Positions 1 through 55,309 of a stretch of 64,000 nucleotides of DNA are shown here, one piece after another. Within the stretch, counting starts at the first letter, position 1; each line of letters starts with the position of its first letter. The DNA comes from an uncultured Gemmatimonadota bacterium (GTDB lineage: Bacteria; JAAXHH01), in contig OX638340.1 in assembly GCA_951812955.1 (NCBI GenBank), positions 2,048,001-2,112,000 on the forward strand. Reading direction: 5' to 3'. The notes under the pieces were generated by a model that saw only the letters and a program-made list of their open reading frames with translations, had not been told where the DNA came from and did no database searches. A program made the translations under genes and the position numbers.

Positions 1-792
1 CTCTGGGACATCGCGGGCAAGGCCGGCGGACGGCCCGTCTACCAACTCCTGGGTGGCGCGCACAGGCTGAAGTTCCGGGCCTATGCTTCCGTCCTGTTTG
101 GAGACACGCCTGCCACGACCCGGACAATCGGGCAGAAGTACGCCGACCAGGGATTCACGGCAGTCAAGTTCGGCTGGGGACCCATGGGCCAGGACGAAAC
201 GCAGGACGTCGCACTGGTGCGGGAGGCGCGCCGGGGCACGGGTGACGAGGTGGACGTACTCATCGACGCGGGGCAGGTCTGGGATTCGGAAACCGCGCTG
301 ATCCGGTCCCGCCAGTTTGCCGAATACCGACCCTTCTGGATCGAAGAGCCGCTGCACCCCGACGACATCGATGGGTATGCCTCACTGACCGCGGAGAGTC
401 CGGTTCCCATCGCCACAGGAGAAGCGGAATCCCGTCTCGAGGACTTTGAACGCCTGGTCACCAGGGGCGGGCTCGACTGGATTCAACCGGATCCGGGCCG
501 CTGCGGCATTACGACCATGGCCGCGGCCGGCCGGACCGCCCACCGGCACGGCCGCAAGGTCGTTAATCACAGTTACAAGAGCGGCATTACCATGGCGGCG
601 TCGCTCCATGCCCTGGCCTCCCTGCCCAACGCGTCCGTCTTCGAATTCTGCATGTCGGATTCGCCGCTGAGACATGAACTGACGCATGAACGTTTTACAA
701 TTGATGAAGACGGTTTCGTGGCGGTGCCGGAAGGACCCGGACTCGGCGTCACGGTGAACGAGGAAACCGTAAACCAGTACCGCGTAGCGTAG
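1..792 (+). CDS. enolase-superfamily (mandelate racemase/muconate lactonizing enzyme family) sugar-acid dehydratase-like protein, 5'-truncated at window edge
   Basis: C-terminal 202 aa with typical MR/MLE C-terminal domain signatures (EEP..D.. metal-ligand region, 'FWIEEPLHPDD', 'ATGE'); ORF open to position 1. Confidence 0.8.
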   Translation, partial: LWDIAGKAGGRPVYQLLGGAHRLKFRAYASVLFGDTPATTRTIGQKYADQGFTAVKFGWGPMGQDETQDVALVREARRGTGDEVDVLIDAGQVWDSETALIRSRQFAEYRPFWIEEPLHPDDIDGYASLTAESPVPIATGEAESRLEDFERLVTRGGLDWIQPDPGRCGITTMAAAGRTAHRHGRKVVNHSYKSGITMAASLHALASLPNASVFEFCMSDSPLRHELTHERFTIDEDGFVAVPEGPGLGVTVNEETVNQYRVA

Positions 793-816
793 TCTTATCT
801 CAAAGGAGTTGCAACG

Positions 817-1218
817 ATGGCCGCCCCCTCACCAGTCATGCATGCCGCACTCAACCGGATAAATATCGACGAGATCAAGGAACAGATAGGACCGCCGCCT
901 GCATCCTGCGCGGTCGTTGCAGCAGACCACGTGACGGCGGCGTTCATCTGGCAGGAATCGGGCACGATCAACGACAACCACTGCCACGATTACGACGAAT
1001 GGTGGCTCGTACTGGAAGGCGAGATCGACTGGGTGATCGAAGGCCGGAATGAACCGGTCCACGCAAAAGCGGGAGATTTCATCTACGTGCCCGCCCTGAC
1101 CTTCCATCACATATTCCCGGTGGGCGGCAAGCCTTCGATCCGACTGGGGGTCGCCCTGACGGGACACGGCCACCTCCACGAGCGGCCGGAGCGCAAGGTA
1201 AAGGTCACGTTGGAGTAG
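817..1218 (+). CDS. cupin-domain protein
   Basis: 133 aa; AAAGGAG RBS 8 nt upstream of ATG; cupin-like His/Glu pattern (HCHDYDEWWLVLEGE...H). Confidence 0.6.
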   Translation: MAAPSPVMHAALNRINIDEIKEQIGPPPASCAVVAADHVTAAFIWQESGTINDNHCHDYDEWWLVLEGEIDWVIEGRNEPVHAKAGDFIYVPALTFHHIFPVGGKPSIRLGVALTGHGHLHERPERKVKVTLE

Positions 1219-1253
1219 TATCACAACGGGTAGCGCCACAACGGAGTGAATGC

Positions 1254-1913
1254 ATGTCTACGAGAAATGAAAACCTCGCATCCATGAAGGAAGGCGGTGT
1301 GGTCGCGGTGCTCAGGGCAAGCAGTCCCGACGCGCTGGTCCACGTCGCCCAGGCTATCGGGAGGGGCGGGGTCGGGGCCGTCGAGATCACCATGACGACG
1401 CCCGGCGCCCTGGGCGTCATCGAAGAATGTGCGAGCAGGCTCGGGGGCGAACTGCTCCTTGGCGCAGGTTCCGTGCTGGACCCGGAGACGGCCCGCGCCG
1501 CCATACTGGCCGGCGCCGAATACATCGTGACACCAACGTTGAACCCGGACGTCATCACCCTCTGCCGCCGGTACGACAAGGTCGTCATCCCGGGCGCGTT
1601 GACGCCGACGGAAATACTGACGGCCTGGGAATGCGGCGCGGACATCGTGAAGGTGTTTCCTGCCACCGTGGTCGGACCTCGGTATTTCAGGGACGTGAAA
1701 GCGCCGCTTCCGCAGGTCGATCTCATGCCGACGGGTGGGGTAAACCTGGATAACGCCGGAGATTTCATCCGGGCCGGGGCCTGCGCCGTCGCCGTGGGCA
1801 GCAACCTGGTCGATAAGGCCGCCGTGGCCGCGGGCGAATGGCATGTGCTCACAGATACGGCCCGGGATTATGTGGATGCGGTCAGAAACGCCCGTCAGGA
1901 TGGTGGTGGATGA
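1254..1913 (+). CDS. eda: 2-dehydro-3-deoxyphosphogluconate (KDPG)/4-hydroxy-2-oxoglutarate aldolase
   Basis: 219 aa; characteristic Eda family sequence (VVAVLR..., GAVEITMTTPGAL, Schiff-base Lys region 'IVKVFPA', 'MPTGGV'). Confidence 0.85.
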   Translation: MSTRNENLASMKEGGVVAVLRASSPDALVHVAQAIGRGGVGAVEITMTTPGALGVIEECASRLGGELLLGAGSVLDPETARAAILAGAEYIVTPTLNPDVITLCRRYDKVVIPGALTPTEILTAWECGADIVKVFPATVVGPRYFRDVKAPLPQVDLMPTGGVNLDNAGDFIRAGACAVAVGSNLVDKAAVAAGEWHVLTDTARDYVDAVRNARQDGGG

Positions 1914-2743
1914 TTCGGAAGGCCGTGGTTCCCGTTGCGGGCCTGGGCACGCGGATGCTGCCCCTCACACGGTCAGTTCCCAAGGAAATGCTGCCCCTGG
2001 GCCGAAAACCGGCGATACACCGCGTGGTCGATGAACTGGCGGCGGCGGGAATCGAACATATCCTGTTCGTGACGTCCAGCCGAAAAACGGCGATCGAAGA
2101 GTACTTCGTGTCCGGCGGTCGGGAGGGTGGCCCGCCCCCGCTCGACTACGCTTTCGCCCGTCAGGATGTCCCGGCCGGAAACGGCGACGCCGTGCGGCTG
2201 GGCAAGGCCTTTGCGGGATCTGAACCCTTCGTCGTGGCCTGGGGCGACGCCGTGATCCGGTCGGCGACGGAAGGCAGCGTCGTGCGGCGCATGATGGAAA
2301 CCCACGCGAGAGCGCACGCCGCGTGCACCATTGCGGTGGAGTATGTACCCGAGGACAAGGTGTCGCGATACGGCATCGTAAAGCCCAGGTACGAATCCGA
2401 CACGGCCTTCCCCATCGACGATATCGTGGAGAAACCGGCGGCGGAAACCGCGCCCAGCCGCTACGCTGTTTCAGCCCGGTACATATGTGGCGCCGGGATC
2501 TTTACCGCGCTGGAGGAGACTCCCAGGGGAAGGAAAGGCGAGTTGTGGCTCGCCGACGCCATCCGCAGCTTGCTCCGTGAGGGCGGTCCGGTCTGGTGTG
2601 TGCCCCTGGACACTGACAGCAGGCGCTACGACATTGGCACACCCCTGACCTACTGGGAAGCCTTTGCCGATTACGCCCTGGAGGACGAGGCGGACGGAAC
2701 CTCCTTTCGTGAACTCCTGCAAGGGCGGTTGAACGATTCATAA
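1910..2743 (+). CDS. galU: UTP--glucose-1-phosphate uridylyltransferase-like sugar-1-phosphate nucleotidyltransferase
   Basis: N-terminus 'KAVVPVAGLGTRMLP...PKEMLPL' matches GalU signature; ATGA start/stop overlap with eda. Confidence 0.8.
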   Translation: MIRKAVVPVAGLGTRMLPLTRSVPKEMLPLGRKPAIHRVVDELAAAGIEHILFVTSSRKTAIEEYFVSGGREGGPPPLDYAFARQDVPAGNGDAVRLGKAFAGSEPFVVAWGDAVIRSATEGSVVRRMMETHARAHAACTIAVEYVPEDKVSRYGIVKPRYESDTAFPIDDIVEKPAAETAPSRYAVSARYICGAGIFTALEETPRGRKGELWLADAIRSLLREGGPVWCVPLDTDSRRYDIGTPLTYWEAFADYALEDEADGTSFRELLQGRLNDS

Positions 2744-2852
2744 CGAGCGAGTGGCAACGCGCATGGAGCATGCGTATCGGGGCACACACCTGCTTGACAA
2801 CACGCATCGGGCGTGCGTTCAGCGTGAATAGCGCGCACGCATTGGAGTCCAA

Positions 2853-3836
2853 TTGAACGGTACCGTAACCGCTTCCGCGCCCGGCCGGGTCGGCATCGTG
2901 GGCAATCCGACCGACATGTACGGCGGCAGCGTGATCTCGTGCTCGACGAAGGAAAGGGCGCGGGTCGATATACAGCCGGCGGACCGCCTGATTCTGGATG
3001 CCGGCGCCGAACAGCGGGTCATCTCGACGCCGGACGACCTGGTCACAAGGGAAGACATCTTCGATATCGCCCGGGTCGCGCTTTCCGGATCCGAATCGAC
3101 GGACCTGCGCGTCAGGATCTCCTGGACGACCGATATTCCTTTCCGTGCCGGACTGTCGGGGTCTACCGCGCTGCTCGTATCCATGGTAGCCGGCCTGCTC
3201 GCCTTCCGCGGCACCCGCCTCAGTCCCTATCACCAGGCGGAACTCGTCCGCAGAATCGAGTACCGGAACCTGACATTCTGCGGGTACCAGGATGCCTACA
3301 TGTGTACCTTCGGCGGGCTGCATTACATGGACTTCAGGGGGAAGGAATTCCACCTGGAATACGGGACCGATCCTTTCGCCACCATGGAACTGATCGAAAT
3401 GTCCGCAGCCCTGCCGGCCGTCGTGATCATCACAGGAGGGCAGCGCGTCTCCGGAGGCGTGCATACGCCCTTGCGGGAACGCTGGCTCGCCGGGGAGACA
3501 GAAGTGGTCGAGGCATACGAGGCCATCGCCGGCCTGGCCCGGGAAGGCAAGAAAGCAGTACTTGAAGACCGGCTCGACAAGCTGGGAAAGCTGATGAACG
3601 AGAACCAGACACTGACGCAGTCGCTCGGCGGATCCAATCTGGAGGACGACAGGTTCATCGAACTGGCCCGGCAGGCAGGCGCGTCCGGCGCCAAGCTCGC
3701 GGGCAGCAGCGGCGCTATCGTCGTGCTTCACGAGTCACCCGGAGATCTAGTAAAAGTAATGATGGACGCCGGTGCAGTGGGCATGCTGGAACCCGCACCG
3801 GGACCGGGGCTCCGTATCGAGCAGGAAGAATCATGA
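2853..3836 (+). CDS. GHMP-family sugar kinase (specificity unknown)
   Basis: TTG start with GGAG upstream; GHMP motif II-like 'PFRAGLSGSTALLVSMVAG'; 327 aa. Confidence 0.7.
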   Translation: MNGTVTASAPGRVGIVGNPTDMYGGSVISCSTKERARVDIQPADRLILDAGAEQRVISTPDDLVTREDIFDIARVALSGSESTDLRVRISWTTDIPFRAGLSGSTALLVSMVAGLLAFRGTRLSPYHQAELVRRIEYRNLTFCGYQDAYMCTFGGLHYMDFRGKEFHLEYGTDPFATMELIEMSAALPAVVIITGGQRVSGGVHTPLRERWLAGETEVVEAYEAIAGLAREGKKAVLEDRLDKLGKLMNENQTLTQSLGGSNLEDDRFIELARQAGASGAKLAGSSGAIVVLHESPGDLVKVMMDAGAVGMLEPAPGPGLRIEQEES

Positions 3837-3899
3837 GCGGGAAGAGCCATGAGCAGGAATGAATTATAGAAGAACTATATTGGTTGTAAGGGAGACGCC

Positions 3900-5192
3900 G
3901 TGAACATCACGCTCGACTACGACAGGTCCGGACTCGAAGTGCGTGTCCCGGACGAGAACCTCGTCGCGGTCCTGAACATGCGGGAGACGCCGCCGCTGGA
4001 TGACCCCGTTGCCGCGACTGGAGATGCGCTTTGCCAGCCCGTGGCCAGCCCACCGCTCGAGGAGATCGTCCGGGGCCGCCGGAACGCCTGCGTGGTTGTC
4101 TCCGACATCACGCGTCCCGTGCCCCACGACATTATCCTGCCGCCGCTGCTGGAGTGCCTGGAACGGTGCGAACTGCCGCCGGAGAATATCACCATCCTGG
4201 TCGCCACCGGGCTGCACGCTCCGATGGACGACGCGCAGCTTCGCGAGACCCTGACCGACGACGTGGTCGAGCGCTATCCCATCGTCAACCACATCGCACG
4301 CAACGGAAATGAACAGGCCGATCTGGGGACCACGAGCACCGGTATCCCCATCCACGTGGACCGCAGATATGTCGAAAGCGACCTCAAGGTGCTGACCGGG
4401 TTGATCGAGCCGCACTTCATGGCCGGGTATTCGGGTGGACGCAAGCTCGTCGCGCCCGGACTCGTGGGCGTCGAAACGATCGAGCACCTCCACGGACCTG
4501 GGATACTGGAACACCCCCGCGCCACGACGGGCGTCCTCGACGGCAACCCGCTTCACGAAGCCTCGCTTGAAATCGCCCGTAAGGCCTGGGTCGATTTCAT
4601 TCTCAACGTCGCCATGGACGAGGACCGCCGTGTCACCGGGGTGTTTGCCGGCGAACTCGACCGTGCGCACCGGTTCGGGGTCGACCACGTGAACGGCATG
4701 GTGGTGGCCACCGTCGAGGAACCGGTGGACATCGTCGTGACCTCAGCTGCAGGCTATCCCCTGGACACGACCTTCTACCAGGCCGTGAAGGGCATGGTCG
4801 GCGTGCTGGACATCCTGAAGGAGGGCGGATCCATCGTCATCGCCGCCGGATGCGCCGACGGGATCGGCAGCGCGGAGTTCGAAGGGTTGCTTCGGAAGAC
4901 GACGGACATCCACGCATTTGTCGAATGGATCCAGCAACCGGGCGTATTCACCATCGACCAGTGGGAGATCGAGGAACTGGTCAAGGCGTTGAAGAAGGGC
5001 CGGGTATATCTTTACACGGATGGATTGAGTGACGAGGACGTGCGCGCATGCCTGGTCGAGCCGGTTCCTTCCGTCGAGGCGGGCATCGCACGCGCCGTGG
5101 ATCGCCACGGCCCCAGCGCAACCATCGCCGTAGTCCCGAGAGGTCCCTACGTCATTCCCCGGGTTGTTCCCGGGCAGGACGCCGCCGGTTAG
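3900..5192 (+). CDS. larA: LarA-family (lactate racemase-like, nickel-pincer nucleotide dependent) 2-hydroxyacid racemase/epimerase homolog
   Basis: 430 aa; DUF2088/LarA N-terminal domain architecture; GTG start after AAGGGAGA RBS. Confidence 0.75.
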   Translation: MNITLDYDRSGLEVRVPDENLVAVLNMRETPPLDDPVAATGDALCQPVASPPLEEIVRGRRNACVVVSDITRPVPHDIILPPLLECLERCELPPENITILVATGLHAPMDDAQLRETLTDDVVERYPIVNHIARNGNEQADLGTTSTGIPIHVDRRYVESDLKVLTGLIEPHFMAGYSGGRKLVAPGLVGVETIEHLHGPGILEHPRATTGVLDGNPLHEASLEIARKAWVDFILNVAMDEDRRVTGVFAGELDRAHRFGVDHVNGMVVATVEEPVDIVVTSAAGYPLDTTFYQAVKGMVGVLDILKEGGSIVIAAGCADGIGSAEFEGLLRKTTDIHAFVEWIQQPGVFTIDQWEIEELVKALKKGRVYLYTDGLSDEDVRACLVEPVPSVEAGIARAVDRHGPSATIAVVPRGPYVIPRVVPGQDAAG

Positions 5193-5849: not shown

Positions 5850-5923
5850 GCGCCTGTAGCTCAATTGGATAGAGCACCTGACTACGGATCAGGAGGTTGG
5901 GGGTTCGACTCCCTCCGGGCGTA
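5850..5923 (+). tRNA. tRNA-Arg (anticodon ACG)
   Basis: cloverleaf with 7-bp acceptor stem, TTCGACT T-loop, anticodon loop CTACGGA. Confidence 0.9.

Positions 5924-6438: not shown

Positions 6439-6460
<22 letters not shown>
5945..6460 (+). CDS. tadA: tRNA-specific adenosine-34 deaminase
   Basis: CDA fold zinc motifs 'HAEMLAI' and 'PCAMCAGA'; 3' end overlaps the start of tRNA-Ser by ~20 nt. Confidence 0.85.
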
Positions 6461-6528
<68 letters not shown>

Positions 6529-9048: not shown

Positions 9049-9133
9049 GGAGAGGTGCGAGAGCGGTCGAATCGGCACGCCTGGAGAGCGTGTGTTCACC
9101 ATGTGGACCGTGGGTTCGAATCCCACCCTCTCC
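9049..9133 (+). tRNA. tRNA-Ser (anticodon GGA)
   Basis: same acceptor/T-arm as the 6439 tRNA-Ser; anticodon loop CTGGAGA; long variable arm. Confidence 0.85.
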
Positions 9134-9229
9134 GTTGAAATCCGGGAAACCGGAATTGGAACGAAGGGGGAGTCGGATCTGGCCAGTCCTTGCCGGCCAT
9201 TTGGTACCGTGCCTCGTTCCACGAAATTT

Positions 9230-9302
9230 GGGGCAGTAGCTCAGTTGGGAGAGCGCCAGAATCGCAATCTGGAGGTCGGCGGTTCGATTCCGCTCTGCTC
9301 CA
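9230..9302 (+). tRNA. tRNA-Ala (anticodon CGC)
   Basis: GGGGCAG acceptor with G3:U70 Ala identity pair; anticodon loop ATCGCAA. Confidence 0.85.
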
Positions 9303-9376
9303 CTCGAGACGACGTGGCCGGCGTGATCATCAGACGGCCGTCCATGTCGTCCCGTAATACAGGCTTGGTACGAATA

Positions 9377-15686: not shown

Positions 15687-16348
15687 ATATGCCGACCGTT
15701 ACGGACATCAGCGCCAGAGGCAGCGGCAGACGCCGGGAACGCAAGGTCACGATCGACGGCGAACGCACCTTGACGATCACGGAAGAAACCTTCCTCCGGT
15801 TTGGACTTTTCGACGGGCTGGCAATGGACCCGGAACGGCTGCAGGAAATGGAACTGGCCGACGGCGTCGCCCGCGCCATGACGGAAGCCCACCGGCTCAT
15901 CGACCATCGTATGCGGACCCGCCGCGAACTGACGGTTAAACTCAGATCCCGCGGCCGGCCGGAGGACGTCATCGAGGAGGTTATGGACCGGCTCGAGAAC
16001 GTGGGACTCATCGACGATGGACGTTTCGCCCGGCTGTGGATCGACGAACGGCTTCGGAAAAGGCCGGTCGGACTATCCCTGCTGCGCCGCGAGTTACGTC
16101 AGAAGGGGATCGACGCCGAGATCGTCGAAGCCGCCCTGGAGGAAAGTGCATCCGGCGAAGGGGAAACCAGCCGGGCCTACGAGGCACTGCGTCGACAGGC
16201 CCATCGCTATGCCCGGCTGGACCGCGACGCGGCCCACCGCCGCATGGTCGCATTCCTGGGAAGGCGGGGGTTCGGGCAGGCCGTGATCTACAGCGTCGTC
16301 CACCGCGTACTGGACGAGATAGACGAAATAGAGGAATCCGAAAATTGA
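15683..16348 (+). CDS. recX: RecX family regulatory protein
   Basis: helical repeat protein with RecX-like sequence; located where recA-recX normally follows cinA, but no recA is present. Confidence 0.7.
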   Translation: MNMPTVTDISARGSGRRRERKVTIDGERTLTITEETFLRFGLFDGLAMDPERLQEMELADGVARAMTEAHRLIDHRMRTRRELTVKLRSRGRPEDVIEEVMDRLENVGLIDDGRFARLWIDERLRKRPVGLSLLRRELRQKGIDAEIVEAALEESASGEGETSRAYEALRRQAHRYARLDRDAAHRRMVAFLGRRGFGQAVIYSVVHRVLDEIDEIEESEN

Positions 16349-18975
16349 CCGGAACCGAACTGCGCAAATCGTTTACGGGTTTTTTCGCCGACCGTGACCA
16401 CACCGTCGTCCCGAGCGCCAGCGTGGTACCCTGGGACGATCCTACCCTGCTGTTCACCAACGCAGGGATGAACCAGTTCAAGGACGTATTCCTGGGACAG
16501 AGCACCCGCGACTACGTGCGCGCGGTGGATTTCCAGAAATGCATCCGGGCCGGCGGCAAGCACAACGACCTCGAGGACGTGGGCAGGTCGCCCATCCACC
16601 AGACCTTCTTCGAGATGCTCGGCAACTGGTCCTTCGGAGACTACTACAAGGAAGAGGCCATCGTCTGGGCCTGGGAACTGCTGACCGAAGAATGGAAATT
16701 GTCCCCCGACCTGCTCTGGGCGACCGTGTTCCGGGAGGACGTCGAATCCGAGCAGCTCTGGAAGCGGCACACCGGCGTGGCGGCCGACCGGATCCTGAGA
16801 TTCGACGAGAAAGACAACTTCTGGGAGATGGGCGAGACCGGTCCGTGCGGGCCCAACTCCGAAATCCACTATGACCGGGGACCGGAACGCTGTGATTTGA
16901 AAGGCGATCCGGACCACATCTGCGAGGTTAACGGGGACTGCAAGCGGTTCGTGGAGATCTGGAACCTGGTCTTCATACAGTATGACCGGGGAACCGACGG
17001 CGTGCTGACGCCTCTGCCTGCCCGGCACGTTGACACTGGAATGGGATTCGAGCGCATGCTCAGCATATTCCAGGACGTGGATACGAATTACGAGACCGAC
17101 GTGTTCCAGCCGCTGATGGACCACATCGGCGCATTGTCGGAACGGCCCCGCATGGAAGAGGATACGGCCATGGCCTACCGCGTGGTCGCGGATCACATCC
17201 GCGCCCTTACTTTCGCCATTGCCGACGGCGTCCTGCCCTCCAACGATGGCCGGGGCTACGTGCTGCGCCGGATTCTGCGCCGTGCGTCGCGGTATGGCCG
17301 CACGCTGGGTCTTTCCAGACCCTTCCTGTATCGACTTGTGCCTACGCTGACGGAACAGATGGGCGAGGCGTACCCGGAACTCCCGGCCGCTCGTGAAAAA
17401 GTGGAGACGGTGGTCCAGTCCGAGGAAGTGGCCTTCGGCCGCACACTGGACCACGGAATCGAACTCTTCGAGGACATGGCGGAGCGGGCGGATGCCGAAG
17501 GACGCAGTGAGGTCCGGGGCGACGAGGCCTTCAAACTGTACGATACCTACGGCTTTCCCCTGGACCTGACGCAGTTGATGGCCGACGAAAAGGACCTGAC
17601 CGTGGACCTGGCCGGTTTCGAGACGGAAATGGCGCAGCAGCGGGCAAGGTCGAGGACATCTGGAACGACTTTCAGTGGCGAATCAATAGTAGGTGGCGGT
17701 CTTGCGGCCGAACGCCCTACGGAATTCGTCGGAGATGAGATGCTCTCCGTCGACAAGACCAGGGTGGAGGCGTGTGAGAACGGTTCCGTCGTCCTGACCA
17801 GCACCCCGTTCTACGGCGAATCGGGCGGACAGGTGGGCGACACAGGCTGGCTGGAGACGAAGGCGGGAGATCGGATCGCCGTGCGGGACACCACGCGGGT
17901 CGGCGACACAATCATCCACCACTGCGATCCTGACAGCGCCGCCCGTCTCGAACCCGGCATGGTCGTCGCCGCGCAAGTCGATGACGCGCGCAGGCAGGCC
18001 ATCATGCGTAACCACACGGCCACCCACTTGCTGCACGCCGTGCTGCGGGAGACCCTGGGCGCCCACGTGGAACAGCGAGGCTCCGTGGTCGCGCCCGACC
18101 GTCTTAGATTCGACTTCGCCCATTTCAAACCGGTAGACCCCGACGAACTGAACGCCATCGAACGCAGGGTCAACGAGTTGATCTGGGAAAACATCGGCGT
18201 CGAACCGTTCGAAACCGACCTGGAAGACGCCAGAAGCCAGGGCGCCATGGCGCTTTTCACGGAGAAGTACGAAGACAGGGTACGCGTGGTGCGCATCGGA
18301 GACGCGAGCCTTGAACTGTGCGGCGGCACGCACCTCGACGCCACGGGAGAGATCGGGTTGTTCCGGCTGGTCCGTGAATCGGGCATCTCTGCCGGCGTGC
18401 GGCGGGTGGAGGCCCTGACCGGCGCCGGCGCCTACGAAACCGTAAAGCGAGACGAAGGACTCGTCGCGGGAGCCGCGGAGGCCCTCAAGAGCGAGCCGGA
18501 GGACCTGTTGAAAAGAGCCGGCGACCTGAATGCGCGGGTCCGCGAACTGGAACGTCACATCAGGGAAATGGGCCGTTCCGCGGCACAGAACTGGGCCGAT
18601 GGCCTGGTCGACGGGGCCGTTGACGCGGACGGCGTCTCCGTGGCCGCCGGTCGCGTGGAATGCCCGGACATCGACACCCTCCGCGCCATGGGAGACACGT
18701 TGCGCGCGCGCCTTTCCGACGCCGCGGTGGGCGTACTCTTCGCGAGCTTCGAGGACCGGCCCGTCTGCATCGTCGTGGTGACAGATGGTGCGATCTCCGG
18801 ACACGGCCTGCACGCGGGCAGACTGGCGCGGGACGTGGCCGCCTTCATCGGCGGCGGTGGCGGCGGGAAAGCGCACATGGCGCAGGCCGGCGGAAAAGAC
18901 GCGTCCCGGATCGACGAAGCCGTCACCCGTGCCGCCGGGGTCGTTGAGAACCACCTGCGGACCGCCGGGCAATGA
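16345..18975 (+). CDS. alaS: alanine--tRNA ligase
   Basis: 876 aa; class II aaRS motifs, editing domain (HxxxH...CGGTH), C-terminal DHHA1; probable TTG start overlapping recX stop (TTGA). Confidence 0.9.
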   Translation: MTGTELRKSFTGFFADRDHTVVPSASVVPWDDPTLLFTNAGMNQFKDVFLGQSTRDYVRAVDFQKCIRAGGKHNDLEDVGRSPIHQTFFEMLGNWSFGDYYKEEAIVWAWELLTEEWKLSPDLLWATVFREDVESEQLWKRHTGVAADRILRFDEKDNFWEMGETGPCGPNSEIHYDRGPERCDLKGDPDHICEVNGDCKRFVEIWNLVFIQYDRGTDGVLTPLPARHVDTGMGFERMLSIFQDVDTNYETDVFQPLMDHIGALSERPRMEEDTAMAYRVVADHIRALTFAIADGVLPSNDGRGYVLRRILRRASRYGRTLGLSRPFLYRLVPTLTEQMGEAYPELPAAREKVETVVQSEEVAFGRTLDHGIELFEDMAERADAEGRSEVRGDEAFKLYDTYGFPLDLTQLMADEKDLTVDLAGFETEMAQQRARSRTSGTTFSGESIVGGGLAAERPTEFVGDEMLSVDKTRVEACENGSVVLTSTPFYGESGGQVGDTGWLETKAGDRIAVRDTTRVGDTIIHHCDPDSAARLEPGMVVAAQVDDARRQAIMRNHTATHLLHAVLRETLGAHVEQRGSVVAPDRLRFDFAHFKPVDPDELNAIERRVNELIWENIGVEPFETDLEDARSQGAMALFTEKYEDRVRVVRIGDASLELCGGTHLDATGEIGLFRLVRESGISAGVRRVEALTGAGAYETVKRDEGLVAGAAEALKSEPEDLLKRAGDLNARVRELERHIREMGRSAAQNWADGLVDGAVDADGVSVAAGRVECPDIDTLRAMGDTLRARLSDAAVGVLFASFEDRPVCIVVVTDGAISGHGLHAGRLARDVAAFIGGGGGGKAHMAQAGGKDASRIDEAVTRAAGVVENHLRTAGQ

Positions 18976-18988
18976 TCGGCTCGAATAC

Positions 18989-19873
18989 ATGCGCATTCTC
19001 ATAACCGGCGCCCGTGGACAACTGGGTACGGACCTGCAGCGTTCACTGACGGATCACGAGTTGATACCGTGCACACGCGACGAGCTCGACGTCACGGAGA
19101 AACACCGTGTGTACGCCCTGCTGAAGGACCACCGGCCCGATGCGGTGATTAACGCCGCGGCGTACCACCGGGTCGACGAGTGCGAGTCCCATCCCGACAA
19201 GACATTTACCGTCAATGCCTTCGGTCCCTGGCACCTGGCCATGGCATGCCGCATGTACGCGGCGAAACTGGTGCACATCAGCACGAATTTCGTGTTCGAC
19301 GGCACGGCGGACAGGCCGTACCGGGAAGATGACCTGCCCCTGCCGCTGAACGTATACGGCACGGCCAAGCTGTCCGGCGAGCATTTGGTACGGTCGACCT
19401 GGGACCGTCATTTCATCATCCGGACCACCGGCCTGTTCGGACATTCCGGCGGTGGTGGCAAAGGGTACAATTTCGTCGAGGCCATGATCCGGGCGGGGAT
19501 GGAAAGACGGGAAGTGGTCGTGGTTAGCGACCAGGTGATGTCGCCCACGGCGACGGCGGACCTGGCCAGGACACTCGGGGAACTCGTCACAACCGATACC
19601 TACGGCACCTACCACGTCACCAGTGGCGGCGCGTGCTCCTACTTCGACTTCGCGCGGACCATCTTCCAGAAAACAGGAATAGAAACTGCAGTGAAACCCA
19701 CGTCCACCGAATCGTACGGCGCGCCGGCCGCCCGTCCCCTGTATACCGTACTGGACAACGGCCGGATCCGGTCCCTGGGCATCGCGGAGATGCCCCCGTG
19801 GGAAGACGCCCTGGACGACTACCTGGCGCGACGGGCCGGTCATGGCGAAGAAGCGATCGGCAGGATCCCATGA
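18989..19873 (+). CDS. RmlD-like NAD(P)-dependent sugar nucleotide 4-reductase (dTDP-4-dehydrorhamnose reductase family)
   Basis: N-terminal 'ILITGARGQLG' Rossmann motif, YxxxK catalytic pair ('YGTAKLSGE'); RmlD-family length and sequence. Confidence 0.8.
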   Translation: MRILITGARGQLGTDLQRSLTDHELIPCTRDELDVTEKHRVYALLKDHRPDAVINAAAYHRVDECESHPDKTFTVNAFGPWHLAMACRMYAAKLVHISTNFVFDGTADRPYREDDLPLPLNVYGTAKLSGEHLVRSTWDRHFIIRTTGLFGHSGGGGKGYNFVEAMIRAGMERREVVVVSDQVMSPTATADLARTLGELVTTDTYGTYHVTSGGACSYFDFARTIFQKTGIETAVKPTSTESYGAPAARPLYTVLDNGRIRSLGIAEMPPWEDALDDYLARRAGHGEEAIGRIP

Positions 19874-20856
19874 TCATCACCCAGACCCCCCTGCGCATCA
19901 GCTTCGCAGGCGGGCTGACGGATTTCTCCGATTTCTACGAGCGGGAAGACGGCCTGGTCGTCAGCGCGGCCATCGACAAATACATCTTCGTCATCATCAA
20001 TGAACGATTCGACGACCGGATTTACATCAACTATTCGAAAAGGGAGGCCGTCGATCATCCCGACGAGATCGAGCACGACCTGATCCGGGAGGCCCTGCGG
20101 CTTACCGGCGTGAGCCGGGGCGTGGAAATCACGACGCTGACGGACATTCCCGCCGAAGGATCTGGCCTGGGGTCCTCGAGCAGTATTACCGTGGGCCTAT
20201 TGAACGCCCTGTATACCTATTGCGGCAATCCGCAGCCCACGGAGAAACTGGCGCGGGACGCCTGCGAGATTGAAATCGACCGGTGCGCACAGCCAATCGG
20301 GAAGCAGGACCAGTACATCGCGGCCTACGGCGGGCTGCGCGGTTTCACTTTCCGGCCCGTCGGCGTGGAGGTGGAACACCTCGGCCTCGCCAACGGACAT
20401 GCGGAATGGTTGAGTGACAGTCTGATGCTGTTCTACACCAACAAGACGCGCAAGGCGGAAACCATCCTGCGCGAGCAGAAAGCGAATATGTCCGACAAAT
20501 TCACCCTCGTTAAAGAAATCAAATCCGTGGCGCAAGGTGTGCGTGCAGCCCTGACGGCCGGCCGGATCGACGGCATGGGCGAGCTGCTGGACCGGGGCTG
20601 GAAGTGGAAGTACAGGATGTCCGGCCTGGTGAGCAACGCCGAGATCGACTCCATGTACCGACGGGCCAAGGACGCCGGCGCCACCGGGGGCAAGGTATGC
20701 GGTGCGGGAGGCGGTGGTTTCCTGCTCCTGTTTTGTCCCGCATCCACCCGTTCCAGGGTCCGCGAAGCGCTGTCCGACTACAGGGAACTGCCCTTCAACC
20801 TGGAGCGGGACGGCACCAAGGTGATCTTCAATATGCGGAGGCAGGTATCAAAGTGA
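19870..20856 (+). CDS. hddA: GHMP kinase, D-glycero-alpha-D-manno-heptose 7-phosphate kinase-like
   Basis: 'MIITQTPLRISFAGGLTD' N-terminus and 'PAEGSGLGSSSS' motif typical of HddA; adjacent SIS isomerase gmhA. Confidence 0.75.
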   Translation: MIITQTPLRISFAGGLTDFSDFYEREDGLVVSAAIDKYIFVIINERFDDRIYINYSKREAVDHPDEIEHDLIREALRLTGVSRGVEITTLTDIPAEGSGLGSSSSITVGLLNALYTYCGNPQPTEKLARDACEIEIDRCAQPIGKQDQYIAAYGGLRGFTFRPVGVEVEHLGLANGHAEWLSDSLMLFYTNKTRKAETILREQKANMSDKFTLVKEIKSVAQGVRAALTAGRIDGMGELLDRGWKWKYRMSGLVSNAEIDSMYRRAKDAGATGGKVCGAGGGGFLLLFCPASTRSRVREALSDYRELPFNLERDGTKVIFNMRRQVSK

Positions 20857-20890
20857 TCCGCGAGAACCACGACTGGACACGGGAGGTCCG

Positions 20891-21457
20891 ATGATCCGCG
20901 AATACCTCGACTGGACACGGGAGGTCCTGGACCGGATCGATCCCGGCGAAGTGCAGGAACTCATCGATCTCCTGATGGACGCGCGGAAGAAAGGGCGAGG
21001 CATCTTCGTCATAGGGAACGGCGGCAGCGCGGCCACGGCCTCGCATTTCGCCGTGGACCTGGGCAAGGGCACGCTGCGCGGCACGGAAGATCAACCCCGA
21101 TTCCGGGTCAACAGCCTTACCGACAACCTCCCCTACGTCACCGCATGGGCAAACGACTTCGACTACGACCTGGTCTTCGAACAGCAACTTCGCAACCTGG
21201 GCGCCCCCGGCGATGTGGTCATCGGCATCAGCGCGTCGGGGAACAGTCCCAACGTGGTCCGCGCCCTGGAATTCGCCCGTACCGCCGGGATGGTTTCGGT
21301 CGCGATGACGGGGTTCTCAGGCGGCACGCTCATGGAAATCGCAGATCATTCTGTCCATGTCCCCGTAGACGACTACGGCATGGCGGAGAACATGCACATG
21401 CTCATCGTCCACATCATCGTCACGCAGACCACGTCCCGCGTAGCGAACGGCGAATGA
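20891..21457 (+). CDS. gmhA: SIS-domain sedoheptulose-7-phosphate isomerase
   Basis: 'IFVIGNGGSAATASHFAVDL' SIS motif; 188 aa. Confidence 0.8.
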   Translation: MIREYLDWTREVLDRIDPGEVQELIDLLMDARKKGRGIFVIGNGGSAATASHFAVDLGKGTLRGTEDQPRFRVNSLTDNLPYVTAWANDFDYDLVFEQQLRNLGAPGDVVIGISASGNSPNVVRALEFARTAGMVSVAMTGFSGGTLMEIADHSVHVPVDDYGMAENMHMLIVHIIVTQTTSRVANGE

Positions 21458-22329
21458 CCCTACATTCCTTTGCCAAGATCAATCTCAGTATACACCTGCT
21501 CGGGAAGCGGCCCGACGGCTACCACGAGATCGTCACGCTGATGGAGACCGTAAACCTGGCCGATGACCTGGAAATAACCGGGCAGGAGGCAGGAACGACA
21601 GTCACGTGCTCCGACCCGTCCGTGCCGACGGACGGGCGTAACCTGGCGCACAGGGCGGCCGTTCTCGTGCGGGACCGTTACGGACTCGGCGACCGGGGTG
21701 TGCGCATCCATATCGAGAAGCGCATCCCGGTGACGGCGGGACTCGCCGGCGGGAGCGGCAACGCGGCCGCGACGCTGCACGGACTCAACGCGCTCTGGTC
21801 GCTGGGATTGCGGAAGGAAGACCTGATGGGCCTCGCCGGGGAGCTGGGATCCGATGTGCCCTTCTGTCTCTACGGCGGCGTGGCGGTAGCGACCGGCCGG
21901 GGAGAAAGGGTCGCCTGGTTGGATGCGGCCGGATCACGCAGCTATGTCCTGGTCTGCCCGCCCCTCGCGGTCACCAGCGGATGGGCCTACAGCAGGTGGA
22001 AAATGGAATTGACAAAAGACGGGTCCTGTATTAACTTAATCTCTTCTGTCATGCAGGCGGGGGACACAGGTAGACTGGCGTCCTGCCTGCATAACGACCT
22101 GGAACCGGCGGTCCGGGCGGCCTATCCCGAAATCGACAGGGCGAAGGGCCTGCTGGCGGACGCCGGAATGGAAGGCGTGCTGATGTCCGGCAGCGGTCCG
22201 GCGGTCTTCGGACTGGCGCCCGACCGGACGGCGGCGGAACGGATAGCAAGCGATCTGCGGGGACGGGTCGAACCGTCCTGGCGGGTCTTCGCGGTTTCCT
22301 CGTCTCCCCGCCGAAATGCCGCGGTTTAA
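21454..22329 (+). CDS. ispE: 4-(cytidine 5'-diphospho)-2-C-methyl-D-erythritol kinase
   Basis: 'KINLSIHLLGKRPDGYHEI' N-terminus and GHMP motif 'PVTAGLAGGSGNAAA'; ATGA overlap with gmhA; ispE-prs synteny. Confidence 0.85.
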   Translation: MTLHSFAKINLSIHLLGKRPDGYHEIVTLMETVNLADDLEITGQEAGTTVTCSDPSVPTDGRNLAHRAAVLVRDRYGLGDRGVRIHIEKRIPVTAGLAGGSGNAAATLHGLNALWSLGLRKEDLMGLAGELGSDVPFCLYGGVAVATGRGERVAWLDAAGSRSYVLVCPPLAVTSGWAYSRWKMELTKDGSCINLISSVMQAGDTGRLASCLHNDLEPAVRAAYPEIDRAKGLLADAGMEGVLMSGSGPAVFGLAPDRTAAERIASDLRGRVEPSWRVFAVSSSPRRNAAV

Positions 22330-22355: not shown

Positions 22356-23309
22356 ATGGCGGTCGGTTTGAAGATTCTGAGTGGGAATTCAAACGCACCG
22401 CTTGCTAACGACATCTGTGATTATCTCGGCGTATCCCTGGGCAAAGCCGCCGTTTCGCGTTTCAGCGACGAGGAGATCCGGATACACATCAATGAGGACA
22501 TCCGCGGGACGGACGTGTTCGTGGTCCAATCGACCAATTCTCCGGCGGAGAACCTCCTCGAGTTGCTGCTGCTGCTCGACGCGGCGAAACGGGCTTCGGC
22601 CCGCAGGGCTACCGCGGTGATCCCCTATTACGGCTATGCCCGGCAGGACCGCAAGGCGGGGCCCCGGGTACCCATTTCCGCCAAGGTCGTCGCAAACCTG
22701 ATCGCAGCGGCCGGGGCGGACCGCGTGCTGACGATGGACCTGCACGCGCCTCAGATCCAGGGATTCTTCGACATCCCCCTGGATCATCTGTACTCCGCGC
22801 CCGTGTTTACGGGCCGGCTCAGGGAACTGGGGACTTCGGATGAACTCGTAATCGCGTCACCGGACGCGGGAGGCATGGCCATGGCCCGGTCCTACGGCAG
22901 GCGGCTGAACTGCCCCCTGGCCCTGGTGGACAAGCGGCGGCCGAGACCCAACGTGTCCGAGGTCGTCAACGTGATCGGCGAAGTGGAAGGGAAAAACGTA
23001 ATCATCCGCGACGACATGATCGACACCGGGGGAAGCCTGACCGGAGCGGCCGAGGCCTTGAAGAAGAATGGCGCTGAAACGATATACGCGGCGTGCACCC
23101 ACGCGTTGCTCTCCGGAAACGCCGTGCAGAAGGTGGAGGATTCCGTACTGGACAGCCTGATCGTCTCAGACTCGATTCGACTGAGCAAGGACAAGCAGAG
23201 CGGCAAGCTGGAACAACTGTCCGTCGCGTCCCTGTTCGGCGAGGCAATCAAGCGCATACACGAAGAAAAATCCGTCAGTTCGCTCTTCGAATCGTCGGAT
23301 CAGACCTGA
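22356..23309 (+). CDS. prs: ribose-phosphate pyrophosphokinase
   Basis: PRPP-binding motif 'VIIRDDMIDTGGSL', 'YYGYARQDRK'. Confidence 0.9.
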   Translation: MAVGLKILSGNSNAPLANDICDYLGVSLGKAAVSRFSDEEIRIHINEDIRGTDVFVVQSTNSPAENLLELLLLLDAAKRASARRATAVIPYYGYARQDRKAGPRVPISAKVVANLIAAAGADRVLTMDLHAPQIQGFFDIPLDHLYSAPVFTGRLRELGTSDELVIASPDAGGMAMARSYGRRLNCPLALVDKRRPRPNVSEVVNVIGEVEGKNVIIRDDMIDTGGSLTGAAEALKKNGAETIYAACTHALLSGNAVQKVEDSVLDSLIVSDSIRLSKDKQSGKLEQLSVASLFGEAIKRIHEEKSVSSLFESSDQT

Positions 23310-26201: not shown

Positions 26202-26276
26202 GGGCGATTAGCTCAGTTGGTTCAGAGCGCATGCCTTACAAGCATGAGGTCACTGGTTCGAATCCAGTATCGCCCA
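26202..26276 (+). tRNA. tRNA-Val (anticodon TAC)
   Basis: GGGCGAT acceptor, anticodon loop CTTACAA, GGTTCGAATCC T-loop. Confidence 0.85.
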
Positions 26277-26288
26277 TGCAGCAAATTC

Positions 26289-26363
26289 GGGGGCGTAGTT
26301 CAATCTGGTTAGAGCACTGCCCTGTCACGGCAGAAGTTGCGGGTTCGAGTCCCGTCGTCCCCG
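26289..26363 (+). tRNA. tRNA-Asp (anticodon GTC)
   Basis: anticodon loop CTGTCAC; TTCGAGT T-loop; discriminator G. Confidence 0.85.
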
Positions 26364-26421
26364 TTTATCTCGATCGATAGCCCGTCGAACATGCATGGTT
26401 CCGGCGGGCTATCTTGATTAT

Positions 26422-26505
26422 GCCGGAGTGGTGGAATTGGTAGACGCGAGGGACTCAAAATCCCTTGACCGCAAGGTCGTGTCGGTTCGAGTCCGACCTC
26501 CGGCA
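26422..26505 (+). tRNA. tRNA-Leu (anticodon CAA), long variable arm
   Basis: GCCGGAG acceptor, anticodon loop CTCAAAA, long extra arm. Confidence 0.85.
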
Positions 26506-26596
26506 TCCCGATCCGTCGCCGGACGGGTCCTACCGGGCACGGTAGCATCCCGAATGCGGCACGACCGCCGGTTACCACGCGGATTCCGCTTTTCAG

Positions 26597-26656
26597 CAGG
26601 CCCGGCACGCCCGACAGGCCCGGCAGGCCCGGCACGCCCGGTAGGCCCGGCACGCC
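26597..26656. repeat. short GC-rich tandem repeat (GGCCCGGCAcGCCCG-like units) between tRNA-Leu and M20 peptidase gene
   Basis: 4-5 imperfect copies of a ~10-14 bp unit read directly in sequence. Confidence 0.6.
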
Positions 26657-27859: not shown

Positions 27860-28123
27860 ATGAAGACGACGCTCAACATCCAGGACGAATTGCTGGCGCG
27901 TGCCAAGCGACACGCGCAGCGGACCGGACGGCCGCTACGCGCCGTGGTAGAAGAGGGTCTGCGCGAAGAGGGTCTGCGCAAGGTGCTCTCAACCGAATCC
28001 CCCCATGATCGCTATATTCTGCCCGACCACAGCGTGGGCGAAGCCGGGGGAAGAGACCCCCTGGAGGCGTACTCCTGGCAGGACCTCCGGGAAGTGATCT
28101 ACGGAGAGCCTCACCTCCCGTGA
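27860..28123 (+). CDS. VapB-type (Rv0623-like) type II antitoxin, orphan
   Basis: 'MKTTLNIQDELLARAKRHAQRTGRPLRAVVEEGLR' matches the VapB antitoxin N-domain; no PIN toxin adjacent; internal 15-bp tandem duplication (EEGLREEGLR). Confidence 0.55.
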   Translation: MKTTLNIQDELLARAKRHAQRTGRPLRAVVEEGLREEGLRKVLSTESPHDRYILPDHSVGEAGGRDPLEAYSWQDLREVIYGEPHLP

Positions 28124-55012: not shown

Positions 55013-55309
55013 TTGGTTCGTAGACCATGGATGGACGTGACAATCAAGGCCGCGCTGATTGGCGCCGCAGTTCTGGTATATCTGGACCTGAAGGCCGAGA
55101 TCAGATCCGTACGGGTCGACCTGGGAACCAGGATCGACAGGTTGGAAACCAGGATGGGAACCAGGATCGGCAGGTTGGAAACCAGGATGGACAGGTTGGA
55201 AACCAAGGTGGACGGGTTGGAAACCAAAATCGACGAAGTACGGGGACATTTCAGGTTCGAAATGACCGAGCCAAACGAAAATCCGCCTCCCACGGACGTG
55301 AATCAATAG
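55013..55309 (+). CDS. small membrane-anchored coiled-coil protein built from 11-residue repeats (GTRIDRLETRM)
   Basis: N-terminal TM helix 'VTIKAALIGAAVLVYL'; 33-bp DNA tandem repeats 55120-55240 encoding (x-R-[IL]-[DG]-R-L-E-T-[RK]-[MV]-[GD]) units. Confidence 0.45.
   Translation: MVRRPWMDVTIKAALIGAAVLVYLDLKAEIRSVRVDLGTRIDRLETRMGTRIGRLETRMDRLETKVDGLETKIDEVRGHFRFEMTEPNENPPPTDVNQ

Follow-up and report, generated by a model that had tools for sequence, protein, structure and literature searches.

Three sugar genes lie on the + strand between alaS and ispE in the window analysed here, a stretch of 64,000 nucleotides from an uncultured Gemmatimonadota bacterium (contig OX638340.1). They encode a predicted RmlD-type NAD(P)H-dependent 4-ketoreductase of the dTDP-4-dehydrorhamnose reductase family (294 amino acids (aa), 18989..19873), a predicted HddA/WcbL-type GHMP kinase (328 aa, 19870..20856) and a GmhA-like SIS protein (188 aa, 20891..21457), just as the original prediction had read them. 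In our reading, to which we assign a probability of about 0.65, this trio is not an insertion but the compacted remnant of an ancestral surface-polysaccharide locus of the Wza/Wzc/Wzx type that occupied the space between alaS and ispE. A related clade carries a locus of approximately 50 kb at this position, in which each of the three genes has a homologue and their order is unchanged, and the trio therefore looks like a remnant of deletion. The encoded proteins are new members of known enzyme kinds, and the main value of the analysis lies in the reduction of the locus and in the definition of a subfamily.

A large polysaccharide locus between alaS and ispE in related genomes

The kinase homologues nearest to that of the window outside its own clade (64-69% identical) are found at the 3' end of a large glycan locus, the last genes of which encode YfhO, several glycosyltransferases of the GT4 family, a methyltransferase, the priming transferase Bac_transf, a short-chain dehydrogenase/reductase (SDR) of 373 aa, the kinase, the SIS protein and Wzi. 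At two such loci (L092 and L093 in our numbering), Wzi is followed by ispE-prs-ctc-pth-rpsF-rpsR-rplI-M20-ychF, which is the downstream gene order of the window. On one contig of 38 kb, an RmlD-like gene (58% identical), followed by two radical SAM/SPASM genes and genes for GT2 glycosyltransferases, is located about 29 kb upstream of the kinase gene (69%) on the same strand, and the kinase end of this contig reads Bac_transf-SDR373-kinase-SIS-Wzi, then ispE-prs.

The other end of the locus was recovered by a search with AlaS. The protein of the related clade (L094) is 58% identical to that of the window, and the genes 5' of it are arranged as in the window, with those for a GHMP kinase, LarA, a hexapeptide protein and a deaminase, then dnaX, ybaB, recR, pgsA, pgpA, cinA, thpR and recX. 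On its 3' side, alaS is followed by genes for a PcrB-like protein, LPG_synthase_TM, Wza, Wzc, PMT_2, a methyltransferase and GT4 enzymes. This contig overlaps another (L095) over 1993 bp at 100% identity, and L095 continues with genes for a nucleotidyltransferase (NTP-transferase), an SDR, a DegT aminotransferase, a flippase, a radical SAM protein, an RmlD-like protein (57%), two radical SAM/SPASM proteins and glycosyltransferases. The interval between alaS and ispE in the related clade thus amounts to about 50 kb (alaS and rmlD are approximately 18 kb apart, rmlD and the kinase gene about 29 kb, and the kinase gene and ispE about 4-6 kb), compared to 2.5 kb in the window. The original prediction held that the sugar genes had been inserted into the ispE-prs-ctc-pth operon; this is not supported, given that the genes lie 5' of ispE and not inside the operon, and that relatives with the same flanks carry the ~50-kb locus at this very point. 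Beyond the related clade, a groundwater Latescibacterota metagenome-assembled genome (MAG) contains kinase-SIS-Wzi-ispE-prs, and an SDR-kinase-SIS-Wzi module is present in other phyla as well.

Under the deletion model, the large locus would be old, and the clade of the window would have deleted three segments of it, bringing rmlD beside the kinase gene and the SIS gene beside ispE; the adjacency of rmlD and the kinase gene would then exist because deletions joined them. The sponge and marine clade would have lost the export genes, the glycosyltransferases, the priming transferase, the nucleotidyltransferase, the SDR and Wzi, and the survivors would be the RmlD-type 4-ketoreductase and the kinase-isomerase pair.

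The kinase and the SIS protein

The kinase contains both domains typical of its family (GHMP_kinases_N and GHMP_kinases_C; PF00288 at 52.9 bits and PF08544 at 37 bits). Its best match in NCBIfam is HddA (NF049969), at 150.4 bits against a cut-off of 600, which is not passed. The nearest solved structures are those of HddA-type kinases, namely 3k85, 4usk (WcbL of Burkholderia pseudomallei) and 4n3o (Campylobacter jejuni), with E-values between 7.5e-38 and 2.4e-35 and only low identity to the window kinase; the corresponding E-values are 5.8e-15 for fucokinase, 1.5e-10 for mevalonate kinase and 2.5e-9 for galactokinase. The activity of WcbL is abolished by mutation of R13, D22, S118-120, Q162 or D163, where Q162 binds heptose, the inactive Q162L mutant mimics the residue of galactokinases and D163 is the catalytic base (PMC4691232). 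In a phmmer alignment these sites correspond to R9, D18, S102-104, Q146 and D147 of the window kinase, so all the validated residues are kept, and all five sites are invariant in an alignment of 11 subfamily sequences from several phyla (A1). The structural E-values and the WcbL residues bear out the proposal that the enzyme is of the HddA type and does not group with galacto- or fucokinases. Sequences about 55-60% identical to each other occur across Armatimonadota, Verrucomicrobiota, KSB1, Nitrospirota, Chloroflexota, Acidobacteriota and other phyla, and the kinase belongs to a distinct, widespread and uncharacterised HddA-like subfamily.

The SIS protein (SIS_2/SIS domains; PF13580 at 64 bits) has gmhA (TIGR00441) as its best NCBIfam match, at 124.2 bits against a cut-off of 209.45, which again is not passed. 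Its best solved structures are all GmhA enzymes (1tk9 with an E-value of 3.4e-31, followed by 1x94 and 2xbl), with DiaA behind at 2e-21, and the protein is probably a sedoheptulose-7-phosphate isomerase. Harmer is said to have reported in 2010 that the zinc-binding and catalytic residues of GmhA are H64, E68, Q175 and H183 in the numbering of the B. pseudomallei enzyme. Relative to that enzyme, the window protein retains both histidines and carries D in place of E68, E in place of Q175 and T in place of D61. A motif census of 68 kinase-linked SIS proteins (loci L001-L086) extends these changes to the subfamily, in which E68 is replaced by D in 66 of 66 sequences, Q175 by E in 62 of 68 and D61 by T, N, I or A; the active-site pattern is hence H-D-E-H where GmhA has H-E-Q-H. 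The substitutions would be conservative for metal binding, and an active site altered in this way makes a different substrate or product stereochemistry possible.

A DiaA-like role for the SIS protein was considered because its gene sits among genes of DNA replication, and was rejected, as the SIS protein accompanies the kinase in all phyla and its GmhA scores exceed those of DiaA.

The subfamily across phyla

The genomic context of the kinase subfamily was surveyed in 84 loci from about ten phyla, with all neighbouring open reading frames (ORFs) clustered. The kinase is accompanied by the SIS protein in 67 of the 84 loci, by an SDR of 371 aa in 49, by an NTP-transferase of 238 aa in 46-49 and by a HAD phosphatase of the GmhB type in 21. 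The cut-off of the GmhB equivalog (NF006506, 178 bits) is passed at L035 (186 bits) and L040 (184 bits), and the phosphatase is fused to the SIS protein in a KSB1 genome (L078, 11025-12230, 401 aa) and in a KSB1-type locus (L056, 6836-7957), the setting of the fusion being an SDR-NTP-kinase-(SIS-GmhB)-Wzi module. The cassettes reside in exopolysaccharide (EPS) loci that also encode a polyprenyl glycosylphosphotransferase, Wzi and GT2 enzymes. The subfamily has a consistent module, SDR-NTP-kinase-SIS(-GmhB), and a diagnostic active-site signature in its isomerase.

The nucleotide-heptose pathway of C. jejuni follows a four-activity logic (PMC10680097). These activities, also those of the HddA system, are an isomerase, a kinase, the GmhB phosphatase and an NTP-transferase, and the subfamily cassettes cluster the same four in polysaccharide loci. 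The window shares with the HddA/WcbL heptose system the SIS isomerase and the GHMP kinase standing side by side, and differs from it by the absence of the phosphatase and the nucleotidyltransferase that are part of the set. That GmhB and HddC are missing locally had been anticipated by the original prediction: tblastn with the cassette GmhB, NTP-transferase and SDR returned only a GalU-like gene, and neither this search nor reading of the ORFs identified gmhB, a cassette-type nucleotidyltransferase or the cassette SDR in the 64-kb window. In C. jejuni, gmhB (Cj1152) lies outside the heptose locus (PMC10680097), which is a precedent for an unlinked gmhB. The nucleotidyltransferase of the cassettes is closer to the model of mannose-1-phosphate guanylyltransferase (188 bits) than to HddC (100 bits), with both scores below the cut-offs, and in this respect the cassettes differ from the HddA/HddC system. 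The structural matches, the WcbL residues, the adjacency of GmhB and the NTP-transferase and the GmhB fusion together support the assignment of the predicted kinase-SIS pair to the HddA/GmhA types that form heptose precursors.

A second route to nucleotide-activated heptose depends on HldE, a kinase of the ribokinase family and not of the GHMP family. The HldE-based pathway has in common with the system described here the GmhA-type isomerase of the first step and the logic of a bisphosphate and a phosphatase, and differs in its ribokinase-family kinase, the window kinase being a GHMP enzyme. No literature was found on this cassette or on heptose in Latescibacteria or sponge symbionts.

The RmlD-type reductase

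The reductase passes the cut-off of the rmlD equivalog (TIGR01214, 300.2 bits against 224.05) and matches RmlD_sub_bind (PF04321) at 300.7 bits. Its best solved structure is RmlD of Bacillus anthracis (3sc6, E-value 1.4e-70), and the structures of GDP-sugar 4-reductases match at 1e-7 to 1e-8. The match to RmlD (TIGR01214; 3sc6, 1vl0, 1kbz) is full-length, and the window protein has the GxxGxxG and YxxxK motifs and the substrate-binding domain. In the dTDP-L-rhamnose pathway, rmlA, rmlB and rmlC would be expected; none is near the window reductase, and reading of the ORFs found none of the three in the 64-kb window. Neither a 4,6-dehydratase nor a C4 dehydrogenase was found in the window.

Outside the clade, the nearest homologues of the reductase (57-61% identical) are encoded in glycan loci and not in rmlABCD operons, so its exact substrate can be given only as a prediction. 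Their neighbours are two radical SAM/SPASM genes, an NTP-transferase, an SDR and an aminotransferase, and an RmlC-type cupin was not seen among them. The RmlD-like gene followed by the two radical SAM/SPASM genes occurs at L087 (1302-4508), L088 (8001-11276), L089 (8001-11212) and L095 (10001-13248), and this conserved RmlD-radical SAM/SPASM-radical SAM/SPASM arrangement may mark an unusual sugar modification. Among the other 70-odd cassette loci, RmlD is never found next to the kinase.

Conservation and selection in the close relatives

The order alaS-rmlD-kinase-SIS-ispE-prs recurs in at least 12 related MAGs, with kinase identity down to 73%, and an arrangement so repeated is not due to chance; in all these genomes it continues with ctc-pth. 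The closest kinase homologues (87-97% identical) come from MAGs deposited as Gemmatimonadetes or Latescibacterota, whose isolate labels (APA_bin, IRC1_bin, SB0665) presumably point to sponge sources, and the homologue at 73% identity comes from Tara and other marine metagenomes. Compared with relatives of about 90% protein identity (L010/L011 for rmlD), the dN/dS ratio is 0.08-0.09 for rmlD, 0.09 for the kinase gene and 0.12-0.13 for the SIS gene. For the housekeeping neighbours it is 0.09 (prs), approximately 0.2 (alaS) and approximately 0.3 (ispE), and the trio is thus as constrained as these genes. The kinase is also more similar to its counterpart in the marine branch (73%) than are ispE (67%) and alaS (63%). 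By these measures, the three genes are under purifying selection and still functional.

The genes are tightly packed. The two ATGA overlaps of 4 bp reported in the original prediction are present, one formed by the rmlD stop and the kinase start (19870-19873) and the other by the SIS stop and the ispE start (21454-21457). The SIS/ispE overlap is kept across the clade, L001 and L003 included, and the rmlD/kinase overlap is not, being replaced by a gap of 3-4 nt in L001 and L003. A TTGA at 16345-16348, in which the recX stop (TGA) overlaps the putative TTG start of alaS, shows that the tight stop/start packing reaches upstream of the sugar genes. These genes are probably read within a packed recX-prs string of overlapping stops and starts, and the packing suggests that they are co-transcribed. 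No compositional break in GC content was found at 19-22 kb. A simple scan of 15-27 kb gave no promoter- or terminator-like signal above chance from alaS to prs, a result that is uninformative with the promoter types of the phylum unknown.

A tandem duplication at the kinase/SIS junction

The original prediction missed a feature of the junction between the kinase and SIS genes. Tandem Repeats Finder detects at this point, on the + strand, a unit of 38 bp in 1.9 copies (20854..20927, score 127, 91% identity). Junction copy number was compared in nine related loci: four relatives have one copy (L003, L008, L010 and L027), and in these the kinase stop and the SIS start form an ATGA overlap; two copies are present in the window and in L001, L009, L011, L012 and L013, and three in L007. 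The junction thus appears to have been an ATGA overlap ancestrally and to have been split in the window by the 38-bp duplication, and copy numbers scattered in this way suggest that units have been gained and lost repeatedly.

Because 38 equals 36 plus 2, each extra copy forms a mini-ORF of 13 codons; that of the window (copy 1, 20853-20894) has a GTG start and reads VIRENHDWTREVR up to its stop. This mini-ORF shares nucleotides with the kinase stop at its start and with the ATG of the SIS gene at its TGA, so that a relay of stop/start overlaps is regenerated; a further effect of the duplication is that GGGAGG stands 4 nt before the SIS start. The junction illustrates, on a small scale and in nature, how translational coupling can outlast a tandem duplication that does not amount to a whole number of codons.

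Alternative explanations

Several points weigh against the deletion reading. The ~50-kb locus was assembled from contigs of more than one related organism, and the direction of the change, which we infer to be deletion, is drawn from parsimony and outgroup context rather than from a dated phylogeny. Both proteins of the pair score below the equivalog cut-offs, the kinase far below (150 against 600 for HddA) and the SIS protein at 124 against 209 for gmhA, and the SIS subfamily departs from GmhA at E68, Q175 and D61 with the frequencies given above. The absence of gmhB and of the cassette nucleotidyltransferase from the window, and the fact that co-transcription is deduced from gene packing only, count on the same side. 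The trio might also be the ancestral state, around which the 50-kb locus of the related clade grew by successive insertions. This would need an equal number of events (at least three insertions against at least three deletions), and the trio arrangement is present in both the marine (Tara) and the sponge-associated branches. We still consider it unlikely, since elsewhere, in many phyla, kinase-SIS forms part of SDR-(NTP)-kinase-SIS-(GmhB)-(Wzi) modules within EPS loci, ispE-prs is already preceded directly by kinase-SIS-Wzi in the groundwater Latescibacterota MAG, and an orphan reductase plus two pathway steps without a transferase would make an improbable starting point. Also unlikely, in our judgement, is the view closest to the original prediction, namely that a mobile heptose cassette was inserted in the housekeeping operon as one functional unit, in which the reductase acts on an NDP-heptose to yield a 6-deoxy or epimerised product. 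The 4-bp overlap of the rmlD stop and kinase start in the window and the contiguity of the two genes in every member of the clade speak for it, as does the use, in known heptose pathways, of C4 reductases after a 4,6-dehydratase or a C4 dehydrogenase (PMC10680097). However, neither of these preceding enzymes is encoded in the window, the overlap is not conserved (L001 and L003), GC content gives no sign of an insertion at 19-22 kb, and the other 70-odd cassette loci have no RmlD beside the kinase. The proposed role of the reductase in making a deoxy- or epimerised heptose fares no better, because the protein passes the RmlD equivalog cut-off, resembles GDP-sugar reductases only at E-values of 1e-7 to 1e-8 and, in the related clade, has its gene about 29 kb away from that of the kinase, grouped with genes for an NTP-transferase, an SDR and an aminotransferase in a different sub-cluster.

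Two further alternatives concern the function of the genes. The replacements of E68 by D, Q175 by E and D61 by T or N, which characterise the whole SIS subfamily, the scores of both proteins under the equivalog cut-offs and the cassette SDR of 371 aa, to which no function is assigned, would suit a pair that makes no manno-heptose, the H-D-E-H site isomerising some other ketose phosphate that is then phosphorylated at position 1. This is improbable in view of the GmhB-type heptose-1,7-bisphosphate phosphatases, two of them passing the cut-off, that adjoin the cassette in 21 loci and are fused to the SIS protein in two, of the retention by the kinase of Q162, whose change to L cost WcbL all activity, and of the apparently conservative nature of the SIS substitutions with respect to metal binding. 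That the trio is in decay and no longer serves any function might be suspected from the local lack of pathway partners and the apparent loss of the surrounding locus, but is hardly credible: at least 12 genomes carry the three genes as intact reading frames, the dN/dS of 0.08-0.13 is comparable to that of prs and already contradicts decay, and the identity of the kinase to the marine branch exceeds that of AlaS and IspE. A functional remnant of a once larger polysaccharide locus accounts best, in our view, for the trio.

Other features of the window

Upstream of the trio is alaS (alanine-tRNA ligase, 16345..18975, + strand, identified by ORF and translation, with a putative TTG start); AlaS homologues have 873-883 aa and the domains tRNA-synt_2c, tRNA_SAD and DHHA1. 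Downstream follow, also on the + strand, ispE (CDP-ME kinase, 21454..22329; TIGR00154, 228.5 bits against a cut-off of 138.7) and prs (ribose-phosphate diphosphokinase, 22356..23309; NF002320, 449 bits against 297), with ctc, pth, rpsF, rpsR and rplI 3' of prs. The entire string is co-directional on the + strand and reads dnaX-ybaB-recR-pgsA-pgpA-cinA-thpR-recX-alaS, the three sugar genes, and ispE-prs-ctc-pth-rpsF-rpsR-rplI.

The region 184-5192 is a separate sugar-acid or sugar-salvage cluster encoding an enolase-superfamily protein (MR_MLE_C), a KDPG aldolase, a GalU-like nucleotidyltransferase (1910-2743), a second GHMP kinase of no confident family (2853-3836) and a nickel-dependent racemase of the LarA family (3900-5192; its 411 bits fall slightly short of the LarA cut-off, 460). 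The GHMP kinase and LarA genes of this cluster are conserved in the related clade (L094), where they also precede dnaX. The GalU-like gene had been put forward as a substitute for the missing nucleotidyltransferase, a candidacy that we reject: the protein has just 27% identity to the cassette enzyme, and its gene is paired with its own GHMP kinase gene as a member of a distinct conserved cluster. A homologue of this second kinase (47% identical) is encoded right after kinase-SIS-GmhB in an Armatimonadota locus (L024, 4003-5022), a single case.

Seven tRNA genes are located at 5850-5923, 6439-6526, 9049-9303 and 26202-26508; four of them are Arg-ACG, Ser-CGA, Ser-GGA and Ala-CGC, and the other three (Val-TAC, Asp-GTC and Leu-CAA) form a cluster a short way 3' of rplI. 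A repeat of 9 bp (GCAGGCCCG, 6.8 copies) occupies 26596-26656, in the interval that separates tRNA-Leu from the gene of the M20 peptidase. An ORF of 87 aa (27860-28123), the N-terminus of which resembles type II antitoxins (MKTTLNIQDELLARAKRHAQRTGRPLRAVVEEGL), abuts the start of ychF, and no toxin partner was seen for it. Tandem repeats of 33 bp and 21 bp are found at 55122-55234, inside a stretch of lower GC content (0.56) at 54-55.3 kb, where ORFs on the two strands overlap and no gene is apparent.

Implications for the biology of the clade

According to the pathway that we propose, the GHMP kinase would phosphorylate its sugar substrate at C1 to yield heptose-1,7-bisphosphate, and an unlinked GmhB-type phosphatase and an unlinked nucleotidyltransferase would complete an NDP-heptose destined for an envelope glycan. 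The RmlD-type enzyme would most likely act apart from the heptose branch and reduce an NDP-4-keto-6-deoxy sugar of the rhamnose type, whether for that glycan or for a different one. The substrates named here and the unlinked partner enzymes are predictions.

It is also conceivable, if rather doubtful, that the pair was kept coupled to essential genes after the loss of the polysaccharide because its product serves a role beyond bulk capsule synthesis. Heptose phosphates and ADP-heptose are innate-immune agonists in animals. If that role were real, the isomerase subfamily with the H-D-E-H site would contribute to heptose-1,7-bisphosphate or a nucleotide-heptose as the product, which might go into a minimal envelope decoration required for life with a host or act as a soluble heptose metabolite that the animal host detects, and the recurrent 38-bp duplication would reflect selection for coupled expression of the pair.

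For annotation, the analysis implies that the supposed insertion of a heptose cassette in an essential operon is most probably what is left of a large capsule or EPS locus. It also delimits a candidate subfamily for characterisation, HddA/GmhA-like and uncharacterised, which is very widespread (Armatimonadota, Verrucomicrobiota, KSB1, Nitrospirota, Chloroflexota, Latescibacterota and other phyla). For the biology of symbionts, approximately 50 kb of surface-polysaccharide genes have apparently been pruned while three precursor genes are held under strong constraint, which raises the question of which envelope glycan remains.

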